A stretch of 64,000 nucleotides of DNA from Saprospiraceae bacterium (lineage in GTDB: Bacteria; Bacteroidota; Bacteroidia; Chitinophagales; Saprospiraceae). The notes beneath the pieces were generated by a model, which saw nothing but the letters and a program-made list of their open reading frames with translations, was not told where the DNA came from and searched no databases. The position numbers were made by a program, and so were the translations under genes. Of the stretch, positions 11,680 to 15,439 are shown piece after piece (positions within the stretch are counted from its first letter, which is position 1; every line of letters starts with the position of its first letter). The stretch is from assembly GCA_047629355.1 (NCBI GenBank), contig JBLHWU010000002.1, positions 948-64,947 of the forward strand, read 5' to 3'.

Positions 11680-12921
11680 ATGAATAGAATCATCTGTTTC
11701 ATTATTGGACTTTCACTTTTTTTAGTTGCTTGTCAGCAAAAATCAGACACTCAACCTATTTTCAAAACTGTAAAAACGGCTTCAGAAAATGGTGGTGAAT
11801 CCAACCTTTTCGTTTCGGAAACGGGAGAAGTGTATCTTTCGTGGGTGGAATATTTAGGGGACACTATGGATATTTTGTATTTTTCAAAATTGAAAAATGA
11901 ACAATGGTCAACCCCAAAAGAAATCACACGCGGCAAGGATTGGTTTGTCAATTGGGCAGATTTCCCTTCCTTGGTTACCTATAAAACCGGAGGCAAAAAT
12001 CTTGCGGCATACTGGTTGGAAAAAAGTGCAAATGGCACTTATGATTATGATATTCATATTATTCAATCGCAAGACAGCGGAAACAATTGGGGGAATGAAT
12101 TTATCATTCATCGAGACAGCATTGCGGCAGAACATGGATTTATGACGATGGTTCCTTTATCGAATGACCGAATTTTTGCGACTTGGCTCGATGGTCGAAA
12201 CACCAAAACTGACCAAGAAGATCCCGTTGAAAATCATGGACATAGTCATGGCGGTGCGATGACTTTGCGAACCGCAGAATTTGACATCGGTGATCATGTT
12301 TTCGAGGAGGCGGAATTGGACAATAGAATTTGCGATTGTTGCCAAACCGATGCTGCCCTTACTGCGGACGGAGCAATTGTGGTCTATAGAGACCGAAGTG
12401 AACAGGAAATTCGGGACATTGCAATTGTCAGAAAAGAAAAGGGGCAATGGACTACTCCACATTTAGTTCATGCCGACAATTGGGAAATTGCAGGTTGTCC
12501 AGTGAATGGCCCAGCTGTTTCGGCAATTGAAAGAACCGTCGCCGTAGCTTGGTTTACTGCGGCAAATGCCAAACCGACGGTTAAAATATCTTTTTCTCAG
12601 GATAGTGGAAAAACTTTCGAGTCCCCAATTATCGTCTCTAATCATACTCCGCTTGGGCGAGTGGATGTTGAATTACTTTCTAAAAAAGAGGCTATCGTTA
12701 GTTGGTTAGAAGAAACTGACAATGGCGCTGCTATTTTTGCAAAAAAAATAGCTCGAAATGGAGAAACAGAAGAAAACATTTTACTTACAGAAACTGACCC
12801 TTCGCGCCAAAGTGGTTTTCCAACAATGGTAAAAATGCCTGACCAAATGGTGTATTCATGGACAGCAATAGATAGTGTGACCACTATGACTAAGATAAAA
12901 ACAGGTATTTTAACTTGGTAA
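11680..12921 (+). CDS. Lipoprotein, BNR/Asp-box (sialidase-like) beta-propeller with His-rich patch and Cys motif
   Basis: Lipobox LFLVAC. Asp-boxes QSQDSGNNW and SQDSGKTF. Also ENHGHSHGG, CDCCQTD and NWEIAGCPVNGP. It is a paralogue of 13994..15439. Confidence 0.7.
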   Translation: MNRIICFIIGLSLFLVACQQKSDTQPIFKTVKTASENGGESNLFVSETGEVYLSWVEYLGDTMDILYFSKLKNEQWSTPKEITRGKDWFVNWADFPSLVTYKTGGKNLAAYWLEKSANGTYDYDIHIIQSQDSGNNWGNEFIIHRDSIAAEHGFMTMVPLSNDRIFATWLDGRNTKTDQEDPVENHGHSHGGAMTLRTAEFDIGDHVFEEAELDNRICDCCQTDAALTADGAIVVYRDRSEQEIRDIAIVRKEKGQWTTPHLVHADNWEIAGCPVNGPAVSAIERTVAVAWFTAANAKPTVKISFSQDSGKTFESPIIVSNHTPLGRVDVELLSKKEAIVSWLEETDNGAAIFAKKIARNGETEENILLTETDPSRQSGFPTMVKMPDQMVYSWTAIDSVTTMTKIKTGILTW

Positions 12922-13013
12922 AGTGTCGCCTGAAATTTATGCTCAAAAAAAATCATTTGAGGGTGTTACAAATTAGAGGCATCGTAATATGATTAGGTTA
13001 TTTATTACAAATT

Positions 13014-13130
13014 CCCTTAAACCCATTTTTCACCCTCAAGACCGCAGGCGGCGCACAGTTCTGTTTGATGAAGTTCGAAAATCTTAGGATTTTCTCGCTT
13101 CTTAAACTTTAAACAAACTTACTTTACAGC
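13014..13130 (+). repeat. Three-hairpin core repeat, copy c (first hairpin truncated)
   Basis: ccctcaagaccgcaggcggcgcac...gaagttcgaaaatcttaggattttctcgcttcttaaac. Confidence 0.6.
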
Positions 13131-13213
13131 GTACTTAAGTAGGTGACCCCAAATCATTTAATGCTCAATAAACCGTATATTTTTATTTTAATAACATTTT
13201 AAAATTTCAAACA

Positions 13214-13669
13214 ATGAAAAAGCCTATTATTTTAATAGCAATGGCAATTTTTGGATTTTCAGCTTCCGCACAAAGTTGTTGTGCATCTAAAAAAACAGCG
13301 AAGGCTTGTTGTGCAAAAAAAGCAGCAACAACGACAGAAGCATCTGCTCAAACAACAGCGTCTGCCATGTTGGTTTCCAACAAAATAGACCATAACGAGA
13401 CTGCGAAATTTACCGTTTATGGAAATTGTGGGATGTGCAAACGTACTATCGAAGGTGCATTAAAAGAAGTGAAGGGCATAAAATCTGCCGAATGGAACGT
13501 GGAAACCGATGAAATGACGGTAACTTACAATCCACACAAAATTCAATTGGACAACATCAAACAGAAAATTGCGGATGTAGGATATGATACGGATTCACAT
13601 CGGGCGAAGGATTCCGTCTATGAAAACTTGCCGGGTTGTTGTCAGTATGAGCGACCAGTCGATAAGTAG
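13214..13669 (+). CDS. Secreted heavy-metal-associated (HMA) domain protein with Cys-rich N- and C-termini
   Basis: Signal peptide, then SCCASKKTAKACCAKK, an HMA core (FTVYGNCGMCKRTIEGAL) and C-terminal LPGCCQYERP. Confidence 0.85.
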   Translation: MKKPIILIAMAIFGFSASAQSCCASKKTAKACCAKKAATTTEASAQTTASAMLVSNKIDHNETAKFTVYGNCGMCKRTIEGALKEVKGIKSAEWNVETDEMTVTYNPHKIQLDNIKQKIADVGYDTDSHRAKDSVYENLPGCCQYERPVDK

Positions 13670-13670
13670 T

Positions 13671-13825
13671 TAAGTAATACGTACTAATTAATCAGGTAAT
13701 TTTTAAACATCTTTTTCCGCTATTTTCCTTTAAAAAAGACTTCAATAAAAGGATTATTCAAACCTTTTTTAAAGAAAACTATCGAAAAAATCTTGTCTGA
13801 AAATTTTACCTGATTAATCACTATG
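13671..13825 (+). mobile_element. MITE family C, copy 1 (right end truncated)
   Basis: TAAGTAATACGTACTAATTAATCAGGTAA...TTACCTGATTAAT. A near-identical full copy lies at 62513-62668 and a partial copy at 36478-36530. Confidence 0.8.
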
Positions 13826-13847
13826 GAATGAGCAATAAATAAATCAT

Positions 13848-13939
13848 TAGACTTTATGAATGGCGACTCTGGATAATTCGCAAACTATTGACTATCAATT
13901 ACTTGCAATTCTAAAAAAGCTACTCATTCATAAAGTCTA
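13848..13939 (+). mobile_element. MITE family E, copy 1 (92 bp)
   Basis: TAGACTTTATGAATG...CATTCATAAAGTCTA termini. It is almost identical to 56646-56737. Confidence 0.85.
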
Positions 13940-13993
13940 TTATTCCTAACAAGTCTATTGATTTCAAATGTCAATTATTTAAAACACCAAATT

Positions 13994-15439
13994 ATGTACA
14001 AAATATCCTTTATCCTATTCTTTTGCTTGTCTTTTCAAATGACAAATGCTCAGTTATTCGTTTCAGACCCAATCGTTGTTTCAGAGGAAGGTACAGGTAA
14101 ACGTGCTCCTCGAATTGCACTATTGGAAGATGACCGTCCCGTTGTATATTGGGGAAAAACAGGGTCAAATCCATTACTCTATACCGCTCAATGGAACAAT
14201 GTTAGTTTTGGACAATCAATGATTGTTGATACCGATGGAATCGAACCAGATTTATGGGGTGGTGGATTGGGTCCAAGTATTGCGGCACATGGCAATACAG
14301 TTTTTCTGGTTTTTGAAAATTATGGGGAAGGTATCTATTGCCTTAAATCTATAGATGGTGGGGATAATTTTGGCGAACCAGTTGATGTATTTATCGCTCC
14401 TCCAGGACGGGTAGCCACCTTGCCGAGTTTGGTAATTGACCCTAACGGAAATCCAATTATTAGCTTTGTAACCACCAACTCCAGCGAGCAAGAAGCCCAA
14501 TATGAAACGGTTAAATCATTGGATGGTGGAGATACATTTGAATTACCAGTAGTAGCCAATGTTGCGGCATCTGGTAGCGAAGTTTGTGAATGTTGCCCTG
14601 CATCCATGGGTGTTACTGATGAAGATGAAGTGTTTTTGACATTTAGAAATAACGACAATAATTTGCGAGATATTTGGGTTGCCAAATCATCAGATGCGGG
14701 TGCGAGTTTTACGGAAGCAGCAGATATTGATGAAACGGATTGGGAAATTCAGTCTTGTCCCCAAAGTGGCCCAGATATGATGATAAGTGGCGACCAATTA
14801 GCGGCTACTTTTTTTAATGGGGCGGATGGCTCAAAAGTCTATTTTAGTTCTGTGAATAAAAACACCATGGAATTGGAACAACATTTTCACATACCGCCCA
14901 TCGTGGAAAATAAAAACCAGAACTATCCTGCCATTGCTGGAAACGGCGATACCTTAGCAGTCATTTGGCAAGAAAGCGGGCAATTGGGTTTGGATATTAT
15001 GATGGCGTGGACGACTACGGGTGCAGCAGATTTATTGAATAATACAATGGTGATTACAGATGATTTGCTTTCGGAAAGACAACCGGATATGGTTTTCAAA
15101 AATGGACGATTTCACATTGTTTATGAAGACCAAAATACAGGACAAGTTCTGTATAAAATGGTAGGTTTTGACCCATCGGTGGATGCTACACAAATAAATC
15201 TTGAATCAATTAACGCAAAAATTCAGCCCAACCCGTTTTCAGAAAAAACCAAGGTTTATTTTGAAAATTCTACTAATGAAAAAACAGTCATTAGTTTATG
15301 GGATATTAATGGACAACTTCTTAAAAAAGAGGACACGACTTCTAATTCTATCGAAATATCAGCATTAGATGCTGGGATTTATGTGGTAAAAATTCAGCAA
15401 GGAAAATTTGTTGAAATGCAAAAATTGATTGCACAATAA
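13994..15439 (+). CDS. Secreted BNR/Asp-box beta-propeller with Cys motif and T9SS C-terminal sorting domain
   Basis: Start at MYKISFILFFCLSFQMTNAQ. Asp-boxes SIDGGDNF, SLDGGDTF and SSDAGASF. Also EVCECCPAS and DWEIQSCPQSGP. The C-terminus has a CTD (IQPNPFSEKTKVYF...GIYVVKIQQG). Confidence 0.75.
   Translation: MYKISFILFFCLSFQMTNAQLFVSDPIVVSEEGTGKRAPRIALLEDDRPVVYWGKTGSNPLLYTAQWNNVSFGQSMIVDTDGIEPDLWGGGLGPSIAAHGNTVFLVFENYGEGIYCLKSIDGGDNFGEPVDVFIAPPGRVATLPSLVIDPNGNPIISFVTTNSSEQEAQYETVKSLDGGDTFELPVVANVAASGSEVCECCPASMGVTDEDEVFLTFRNNDNNLRDIWVAKSSDAGASFTEAADIDETDWEIQSCPQSGPDMMISGDQLAATFFNGADGSKVYFSSVNKNTMELEQHFHIPPIVENKNQNYPAIAGNGDTLAVIWQESGQLGLDIMMAWTTTGAADLLNNTMVITDDLLSERQPDMVFKNGRFHIVYEDQNTGQVLYKMVGFDPSVDATQINLESINAKIQPNPFSEKTKVYFENSTNEKTVISLWDINGQLLKKEDTTSNSIEISALDAGIYVVKIQQGKFVEMQKLIAQ

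Follow-up and report, generated by a model that had tools for sequence, protein, structure and literature searches.

A copper island in the genome of a Saprospiraceae bacterium (assembly GCA_047629355.1) encodes two related exported proteins, here named A and B, which share a signature of four cysteines on a predicted beta-propeller. The window, that is, the whole stretch of DNA analysed, comprises 64,000 nt (contig JBLHWU010000002.1, positions 948 to 64,947); open reading frames and profile searches placed a single copper island, mainly on the + strand, in its first 24 kb, with housekeeping genes beyond. A copper-related role of A and B is, in our judgement, highly likely. On balance we lean towards the view that they are extracytoplasmic thiolate-based copper handlers, belonging to a widespread and uncharacterised superfamily of Asp-box propellers and serving as accessories of Cu(I)/Ag(I) resistance. 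A role in copper homeostasis is strongly supported because independent operon architectures were found in four lineages. The cysteines themselves are likely to be functional, in a metal or a redox sense, which is favoured by their invariance on a conserved face, by the CxCC arrangement (unusual for disulfides), by the thioredoxin partners and fusions, and by the precedent of CopG. Direct binding of copper by the predicted cysteine site is a finely balanced matter that tips, if at all, in its favour. The features of the two proteins and of the genes next to them are:

9119-11620, + strand: Cu(I)-type P1B ATPase CopA (TIGR01511, 605.7 bits, above the cut-off; CPC and MSFSS motifs)
11680-12921, + strand: protein A, 413 amino acids, predicted lipoprotein
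11722-11733, + strand: lipobox L-V-A-C of A, with Cys18 as the lipidation site
12229-12255, + strand: His-rich stretch ENHGHSHGG (residues 184-192 of A), in the loop between strands B and C of blade 3
12331-12342, + strand: CxCC motif of A (C218, D219, C220, C221), reading CDCCQTD at residues 218-224
12412-12420, + strand: RDI of A (R245, D246, I247)
12481-12513, + strand: WEIAGCPVNGP of A (residues 268-278), with the fourth cysteine C273
13214-13669, + strand: secreted Cys-rich HMA protein between A and B (Pfam HMA, 45.3 bits)
13994-15439, + strand: protein B, 481 amino acids, cargo of the type IX secretion system (T9SS)
14585-14596, + strand: CxCC motif of B (C198, E199, C200, C201), reading CECCPAS at residues 198-204
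14666-14674, + strand: RDI of B (residues 225-227)
14741-14773, + strand: WEIQSCPQSGP of B (residues 250-260), with the fourth cysteine C255
15227-15436, + strand: T9SS type-A C-terminal sorting domain of B (PF18962 and TIGR04183)

The copA gene lies immediately upstream of A, and A and B bracket the gene of the secreted HMA protein, as had been noticed in a sequence-only reading of this DNA. By the lipobox criterion, A is predicted to be a bacterial lipoprotein: its N-terminus reads LFLVAC, and C18 was kept in at least 90% of 60 homologues. In B an N-terminal signal peptide is visible, MYKISFILFFCLSFQMTNAQ, and the sorting domain scored 46.7 bits against PF18962 (Por_Secre_tail; cut-off 27, E=3.8e-12) and 50.3 bits against TIGR04183 (cut-off 23, E=1.7e-13). 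Signal peptide and sorting domain together mark B as a T9SS cargo, so that the targeting proposed earlier for both proteins (lipoprotein and T9SS C-terminal domain) is borne out. An earlier start of B is possible at a TTG codon (13958); gene calls on identical contigs start at 13994.

The fourth cysteine is embedded in the stretch NWEIAGCPVNGP of A (residues 267-278) and in DWEIQSCPQSGP of B (residues 249-260). Mature A contains no cysteines other than the four of the motif and the lipid-modified Cys18, and B has one in addition to the four, C116. The two proteins matched each other in BLASTP with E=4e-9 over 212 residues, and alignment of the family profiles (hhalign) gave a probability of 99.3% and E=1.3e-20 over 359 columns. 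As judged from these alignments, A and B are true paralogues, homologous rather than alike by chance, and the four-cysteine signature (CxCC with WEIxxCPxxGP) to which the sequence-only reading had drawn attention is a feature of both. The families have in common the CxCC, two Arg, RD(I), an Asp/Trp and CPxxGP, giving the joint signature CxCC ... RDI ... WxIxxCPxxGP. Invariant in the A family only are DWFVNWADFPS, H-x-D-x4-EHGF, M194 and several Arg and Asp residues. The RDI begins at residue 28 counted from the first cysteine in both proteins, the equal offset claimed before. The spacers between the motifs, previously given as 46 and 48 residues, are in fact 42 (A) and 44 (B), with the difference of two residues correctly seen. 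An exact count of canonical Asp-boxes yielded two in A (SQDSGNNW at 130 and SQDSGKTF at 306) and three in B (at 119, 175 and 232), in agreement with the repeats first described, and ENHGHSHGG was found in A as stated there.

The A family is large. At least 7962 of the 8000 candidates scored were members at E<=1e-3; an exhaustive search of 50%-identity clusters returned 4572 at E<=1e-3 and 1455 at E<=1e-30, and a pattern scan of a one-genome-per-species collection confirmed at least 599 relatives. Members occur in Bacteroidota, Acidobacteriota, Rhodothermales, and Alpha- and Betaproteobacteria, including conjugative marine plasmids, and are currently labelled 'sialidase family protein', 'exo-alpha-sialidase' or 'hypothetical'. 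No Pfam family, NCBIfam family or solved structure was found for the A family, and a search of the literature on BNR/sialidase proteins with copper, CusA or Roseobacter plasmids returned no paper on the A/B family. The B family is much smaller, with 68 matches, mostly from uncultured Bacteroidota and from Saprospiraceae where the organism is named. The protein identical to A (P0001) carries the NCBI label of a 'Paraglaciecola sp.' metagenome-assembled genome and the one identical to B (P0121) that of a 'Saprospiraceae bacterium'; the former label is probably a binning error, as its close relatives and T9SS genes point to Saprospiraceae/Lewinellaceae.

Conservation of the cysteines was complete. 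C218, C220, C221 and C273 were invariant in 60 of 60 close, 38 of 38 diverse and 151 of 151 A-family sequences, the last set consisting of A and the 150 best cluster representatives; W268, P274 and G277 were equally invariant among the 151. In the B family C198, C200, C201 and C255 were kept in all 44 members compared, down to 27% identity, together with W250, P256 and G259. Homologues on plasmids of the Roseobacter group retain the signature as CTCC ... WEIAGCPVNGP, and a Ralstonia homologue with 23% identity retains CECC ... WRVDACPHHGP and has exactly four cysteines. Variation at the cysteine positions, which would have spoken against the proposed metal or redox role, was seen in neither family, nor in these distant homologues.

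Structure models of A and B (AlphaFold2, AF2) were obtained with mean predicted local distance difference test (pLDDT) values of 88.9 and 89.9, respectively, and contained 28 propeller strands each. With the Asp-boxes as markers of the C-D loops, the strands could be grouped into seven four-stranded blades, the count being taken from the strand list, and A and B are probably seven-bladed Asp-box beta-propellers by these models. The sorting domain of B forms a separate beta domain (residues 408-480). In both models the CxCC ends three residues before an innermost (A) strand (224-227 in A, 204-207 in B), and the fourth cysteine precedes by six residues the corresponding A strand of the blade that follows (279-283 in A, 261-265 in B). 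Strand topology places CxCC and fourth cysteine in D-to-A loops of adjacent blades, at the top face, which in propellers forms the ligand site. Nearly all invariant residues of the A family are located in D-to-A or B-C loops or in strand ends on the same side, and every blade contributes. They comprise W88-P96, H144-F154, W169/D171/R173, M194/R197, D214, C218-T223, Y236-R239, R245/D246, W268-P278, G326/R327 and R376-P381. Such a gathering of invariant residues from every blade on one face suggests a single elaborate site and not a pair of isolated disulfides. The conserved loops were modelled with lower pLDDT (74-81) than the scaffold. The His-rich loop of A, which belongs to the blade preceding the CxCC, is disordered in the model (pLDDT 46).

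The prevailing annotation treats A and B as true exo-alpha-sialidases or glycoside hydrolases of a related kind, and the Asp-boxes, weak matches to Pfam BNR_2 (PF13088) and Foldseek matches to six-bladed sialidases in the PDB (E ~1e-10) can be cited for it. The BNR_2 scores of 28.1 bits (A) and 19.3 bits (B) are below the gathering threshold of 31.4, and the six-bladed sialidases matched with template-modelling (TM) scores of 0.40-0.51 and 8-14% identity only. The first Arg of the catalytic Arg triad of sialidases is supplied by an (F/Y)RIP motif; an exact sequence scan found no RIP tripeptide in A or B. Seven-bladed enzymes of GH145 and PL42 gave TM scores of 0.52-0.63, and the best Foldseek match of B was 5hx0, a protein of unknown function; the remaining matches were generic propellers. 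Searches of PDB sequences with A, B and the A-family profile found nothing beyond the T9SS domain. NCBIfam contained no family for A and for B gave a sub-threshold match to 'PDIAV motif-containing lipoprotein' (25 bits, cut-off 90). Carbohydrate-utilisation genes were not among the recurrent neighbour clusters of A and B loci, which have a copper-operon context instead. An identity as exo-alpha-sialidase was rejected on the sub-threshold Pfam scores, the missing RIP motif, the seven blades and the lack of a glycan context: we are very confident that A and B are not sialidases, and the glycosidase explanation as a whole is hardly credible. The 'sialidase-fold propeller' of the first reading holds as far as an Asp-box propeller is concerned; the fold is probably seven-bladed and not the canonical six-bladed one of sialidases.

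The genomic context of A was assessed in 80 species loci, in which neighbouring open reading frames were clustered de novo, and CopA, multicopper oxidases and small proteins with a heavy-metal-binding domain (HMBD) were separated by motif. The recurrent neighbours were:

CusB/CzcB adaptor: 23 of 80 loci
outer-membrane factor (OEP): 20 of 80 loci
TlpA/ResA-like thioredoxin: 20 of 80 loci
CusA/CzcA pump of the resistance-nodulation-division (RND) type, above the TIGR00914 cut-off: 18 of 80 loci
CopA: 12 of 80 loci
HYC_CC_PP: 10 of 80 loci
multicopper oxidase: 9 of 80 loci
DUF2911: 9 of 80 loci
small HMBD protein: 8 of 80 loci

At least one of these neighbours was present within 10 kb in 45 loci, and in 33 it was directly adjacent on the same strand. 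Several gene orders recurred, differing from lineage to lineage but each with A within the operon: HYC - CusA - OEP - CusB - A in Saprospiraceae and Lewinellaceae; HYC - CusA - OEP - (DUF2911) - A - CusB in Roseivirga and Porifericola, where stop and start codons overlap; OEP - multicopper oxidase - A in Acidobacteriota; and CopA - (multicopper oxidase) - thioredoxin - A - (DUF2911) in Flavobacteriia, Cytophagia, Chitinophagia and Sphingobacteriia. In L014, L016, L035 and L054 the gene of A is placed between those of the OEP and CusB. DUF2911 (PF11138, ~190 residues) directly adjoins A in 4 of the 80 loci; loci with this gene include L016, L041, L058, L061, L063, L073, L077 and L078, and no DUF2911 gene was found in the window. 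A search for CusF-like proteins in the 80 loci and the window, with an approximate E. coli CusF query, returned one match (L021), ~8 kb from A and with no recognised cus gene there; beside the cus operons of Bacteroidota and Acidobacteriota that contain A this approximate query found none, a soft negative.

The specific neighbours are of the copper type, which bears on the identity of a possible metal. A site of four cysteines could bind Zn(II) or another divalent metal, either structurally or in the service of Czc-type Zn/Co/Cd efflux; the CxCC of COG0523 proteins is a Zn/Co site, TIGR00914 covers CzcA as well as CusA, and some of the adaptors matched best as CzcB/NccB. The COG0523 site is found in a cytoplasmic GTPase, an unrelated setting, and multicopper oxidase, CopA, HMBD, MbnP/MbnH, cueR, azurin-like, PCuAC and SCO genes accompany A and B, which makes a divalent-metal site very improbable.

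The association extends to plasmids. Of 170 plasmid records found by tblastn, 63 contained a full-length A homologue with 36-39% identity, all from marine genera of the Roseobacter group and several of them conjugative. Gene order was inspected in three, from Roseovarius, Sulfitobacter and Phaeobacter, and read TolC - copper oxidase - CusF/cupredoxin - azurin-like protein - ABC-type membrane protein - one or two cytochromes c - A homologue, the last gene. The Roseovarius and Sulfitobacter plasmids have cueR and copA just upstream of the operon; a CusA/CzcA pump follows it in Sulfitobacter, and genes for DUF411/CopG, SCO and PCuAC are near it in Roseovarius. In Ralstonia solanacearum a homologue annotated as exo-alpha-sialidase is located on the megaplasmid (L157, 6893-8158), with matches in 106 Ralstonia records; it carries HEGHDHGG right after the signal peptide.

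For B, the context was drawn from 71 metagenome loci, many of them short. One contig (L117) shows the order OEP - CopA - secreted HMA protein - thioredoxin with T9SS tail - B - CusB, matched by L127 up to the start of B, and another (L111) OEP - CopA - CusB - thioredoxin with T9SS tail - B. The T9SS-tailed thioredoxin adjoins B in 6 of the 71 loci, and MbnP/MbnH genes are next to B in about 8. The HMA protein between A and B in the window has an unusual metal motif, CGMC, and three CC pairs (SCCAS, ACCAKK and GCCQYE), and in other loci its homologues immediately precede B or a thioredoxin-B pair; its C-terminal LPGCCQY(E/D)R recurs in the homologues that precede thioredoxin(T9SS)-B modules in L117, L127 and L113. 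A contig from another Saprospiraceae member combines A and B in one island: B is preceded by CusA, CusB, a multicopper oxidase with a T9SS tail, an HMBD protein and an adjacent HMA protein; the genes after it encode a small HMBD protein, a T9SS protein, MbnP and a pair of MbnH proteins, with A just beyond. Taken together, the metal-gene association that the sequence-only reading had asked after was found in Bacteroidota, in Acidobacteriota, on the Roseobacter-group plasmids and in the B-family metagenome contigs. Downstream of B in L098, L103, L105 and L109, a galactose-oxidase-like protein with Kelch and GO E-set domains, PKD domains and a T9SS tail is encoded. Galactose oxidases are copper-radical enzymes, and B might serve the maturation of cuproenzymes at the cell surface.

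Thioredoxins accompany both families. A ResA/TlpA-like gene is directly upstream of A in 15 of the 80 loci; where the partner is a separate protein, it bears a lipobox if it accompanies A and a T9SS tail if it accompanies B. From these matching sorting signals it follows that each propeller is paired with a thioredoxin of its own compartment. Fusions were found as well: an AhpC-TSA/Redoxin domain with WCxPC is attached to the A-type propeller N-terminally in P0241, P0314 and P0328 and C-terminally in P0249, and an HMBD in P0064. A C-terminal extension of P0275 contains a CSGCH motif, and P0317 carries ankyrin repeats. In P0274 (1360 residues) TPR-CHAT domains and a transmembrane segment, predicted from the sequence, precede the propeller, which suggests that the propeller can act as the extracytoplasmic sensor domain of a caspase-like signalling protein.

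In principle, A and B could be thiol-disulfide redox enzymes that do not hold copper stably, their cysteines cycling between dithiol and disulfide and being recycled by thioredoxin or cytochrome; the reaction might be reduction of Cu(II) to Cu(I) for export by Cus and CopA, or repair of copper-induced non-native disulfides or peroxides. Consistent with this are the thioredoxin-like neighbours (20 of 80 A loci and 6 of 71 B loci), the fusions in both orientations, the cytochrome c genes directly upstream on the Roseobacter-group plasmids, the CSGCH of P0275 and the enzyme-like character of the conserved A-family site, in which the invariant R237, R239 and R245 near the cysteines resemble what we take to be the thiol-activating residues of arsenate reductases and peroxiredoxins. 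The context points to no substrate other than copper, however; the HMBD fusion in P0064 and the HMA/HMBD neighbours indicate hand-off of metal, CxCC motifs bind metal in CopG and COG0523 proteins, and at many loci thioredoxin and cytochrome neighbours are both missing. We regard a purely redox-active enzyme as unlikely.

The thioredoxins also bear on another explanation of an even number of cysteines in extracytoplasmic proteins, that is, two structural disulfides in a propeller that binds a glycan, an envelope component or the efflux pump as a scaffold, the island then serving envelope remodelling under metal stress. The fold is common to lectins and glycosidases, 35 of the 80 loci are without metal genes, and the TPR-CHAT-transmembrane-propeller protein suggests a ligand-sensing domain. 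Neighbouring CC residues within CxCC are, on the other hand, an unusual arrangement for disulfides, and the ResA/TlpA-like partners are of the reductase type, which argues that the cysteines must stay reduced. The cysteines are, moreover, surrounded by other invariant polar residues on the functional face, and the conserved loops, with pLDDT values below those of the scaffold, behave as in cofactor-dependent sites. Structural disulfides are quite improbable on these grounds.

In the mechanism that we propose for thiolate-based copper handling, the reduced thiolates would bind Cu(I), possibly as a cysteine-bridged multinuclear cluster like that of the CxCC of CopG. A would act in the periplasm as a lipoprotein and B at the cell surface as a T9SS cargo. 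Working alongside CopA, CusCBA and the multicopper oxidase, they would buffer or relay the bound copper or change its redox state. In other genomes a TlpA/ResA-type thioredoxin of the same compartment might reset the thiols or exchange copper with A or B, and on the Roseobacter-group plasmids c-type cytochromes may take its position. The cysteine invariance and the linkage to metal genes support the earlier proposal that A and B bind metal or have a metal-dependent redox role and are not glycosidases; convergence of the cysteines, direct copper binding and the direction of redox chemistry are what we infer. Since the conserved A residues resemble those of an enzyme and cytochrome genes are among the neighbours, a catalytic version stays alive beside buffering and relay. 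In its most far-reaching form, which we consider rather doubtful, a cysteine-bridged multinuclear cluster of copper, or of copper and sulfur, would be seated in the hub of the propeller (CxCC, the fourth cysteine, M194 and H144/H152 being its ligands), and A and B would represent a new class of cuproenzyme, periplasmic and T9SS-extracellular, respectively. Copper would then be interconverted or mineralised, and B with the secreted thioredoxin and HMA protein would constitute an extracellular thiol-based detoxification module.

Several observations weigh against thiolate-based copper handling by both proteins. No recognisable metal gene was nearby in 35 of the 80 A loci; among 16 of these 35, in which a second conserved context was sought, the neighbours were heterogeneous. 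The Ralstonia megaplasmid copy was outside any copper context in the locus inspected, and a search of the window found no thioredoxin-like gene, next to A or B or elsewhere. B is devoid of the A-specific DWFVNWADFPS and H-x-D-x4-EHGF, and the subfamilies may differ in function. Arg, Asp, His and Glu are numerous among the invariant residues of A, which resemble the active site of an enzyme more than a simple chaperone site. Convergence of the four cysteines into one site was deduced from the topology of the models, and the same residues could form two disulfides. A T9SS-type thioredoxin at the cell surface would have no obvious source of electrons. The operons of the Roseobacter group encode a CusF-domain protein besides the A homologue, and A is therefore not simply a substitute for CusF. 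Finally, the His-rich loop varies from 0 to 5 His and has none in 46 of 151 sequences, so that the His patch, for which a place at the cysteine site had been an earlier question, is no feature of the family.

The other features of the island, and its neighbours in related loci, are listed below.

17-2929, + strand: CusA-like RND pump, truncated at the window start
3351-3674, - strand: IS200-like Y1 transposase (PF01797, 60.6 bits)
3524-5074, + strand: outer-membrane factor
5222-7039, + strand: CusB-like adaptor with HMBD domain
7374-8342, + strand: YdjM-family membrane protein, three genes upstream of A
8364-8915, + strand: AraC regulator with an HMA-like N-terminus (MVCPRCI)
15854-17326, - strand: T9SS protein of 490 amino acids, the sorting tail being the only domain match
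17832-18236, + strand: HYC_CC_PP/DUF8199 small protein (NF047658, 75.7 bits)
18435-18674, + strand: small HMBD protein
18766-20946, + strand: T9SS protein of 726 amino acids
21027-21995, + strand: MbnP with T9SS tail
22080-24217, + strand: two MbnH-like di-haem cytochrome c peroxidases

The IS200-like transposase separates the cusA-like gene from that of the outer-membrane factor, and the identical metagenome contigs L001 and L003 contain it too. The YdjM gene directly adjoins A homologues in two other Saprospiraceae contigs (L159, 17585-19461; L160, 14765-16582). Regulators like the AraC protein were found in 6 of the 80 A loci and are candidate copper sensors of such islands. In 10 of the 80 A loci an HYC_CC_PP homologue opens an HYC-CusA-OEP-CusB operon, which makes it another uncharacterised and recurrent part of cus operons. 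The 726-residue T9SS protein recurs in 5 B loci and in L159, and the trio of MbnP and two MbnH also adjoins B homologues in about 8 metagenome loci and L159; the tail of MbnP suggests that it may be surface-exposed. The defence models of PADLOC gave no match in the window.

If A and B are true copper handlers, CusCBA/CopA systems outside the Enterobacteria have a recurrent part that has so far escaped notice, thousands of genes would have to be re-annotated, and a new scaffold for thiolate copper chemistry would stand beside CopG and CueP. A paralogue that leaves the cell through the T9SS, accompanied by a thioredoxin and an HMA protein that are exported too, suggests that copper is also countered at the cell surface, of which no example was described in the literature searched. 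The copper-handling hypothesis can be tested in culturable hosts such as Phaeobacter, Sulfitobacter, Maribacter, Roseivirga and Tenacibaculum.

Among proteins of similar architecture, GH33 sialidases, BT3686 of GH145 and FoRham1 of PL42 are propellers that carry Asp-boxes in the C-D loops, as do A and B, and matched them with a Foldseek probability of 1.0. TM scores were 0.40-0.63 and identities 7-14%, and the conserved face of A and B differs in having the four-cysteine site and a copper context. Nitrous oxide reductase, with its CuZ centre, and thiocyanate dehydrogenase are seven-bladed propellers with multinuclear copper at the hub, an architectural principle that A and B would share. Their sites are ligated by His, in contrast to the cysteine site considered here, and A and B are not detectably related to them, neither enzyme being among the top Foldseek matches of A and B; the likeness is one of analogy only. 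In Thioalkalivibrio thiocyanoxidans, a protein labelled as having a BNR repeat domain (G372_RS0106285) is encoded in the cluster of thiocyanate dehydrogenase, CopC and CopD, and it is listed at 3.00 among the differentially expressed genes in a study of growth on thiocyanate (PMC5744179).

CusF is encoded within cus-type operons, as is A; it is a small OB-fold protein of ~10 kDa with a Met2-His-Trp site, and no match to CusF_Ec (PF11604) was found by Pfam in A or B. In Salmonella, the thiols of CueP must be kept reduced by the thioredoxin-like Scs system, and pairing of A and B with a compartment-matched TlpA/ResA-like thioredoxin would follow the same logic. CueP binds copper in the periplasm through Cys and His (PMC7558416); unlike A and B it is small and dimeric, with an unrelated fold and sequence.

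The closest functional parallel is with CopG, a periplasmic protein linked to copA and cusCBA, in which a conserved CxCC and Met residues jointly bind a Cu4 cluster bridged by cysteines and for which a part in Cu(I)/Cu(II) redox chemistry has been suggested (PMC7558416). A and B resemble it in the CxCC, the linkage to copA/cusCBA and the extracytoplasmic location, and A also in an invariant Met (M194). CopG is small and thioredoxin-like, whereas A and B are propellers of ~400 residues with a fourth cysteine ~50 residues downstream, and there is no kinship of sequence or fold; no DUF411 domain was matched by Pfam in A or B. A DUF411 gene and an A homologue occur on the same Roseovarius plasmid, which indicates that they are not simple substitutes for each other. 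Overall, A and B are best described as a new scaffold for a known function, the extracytoplasmic handling of copper by thiolates as in CopG and CueP, of which the T9SS-exported version at the cell surface is the unusual part.

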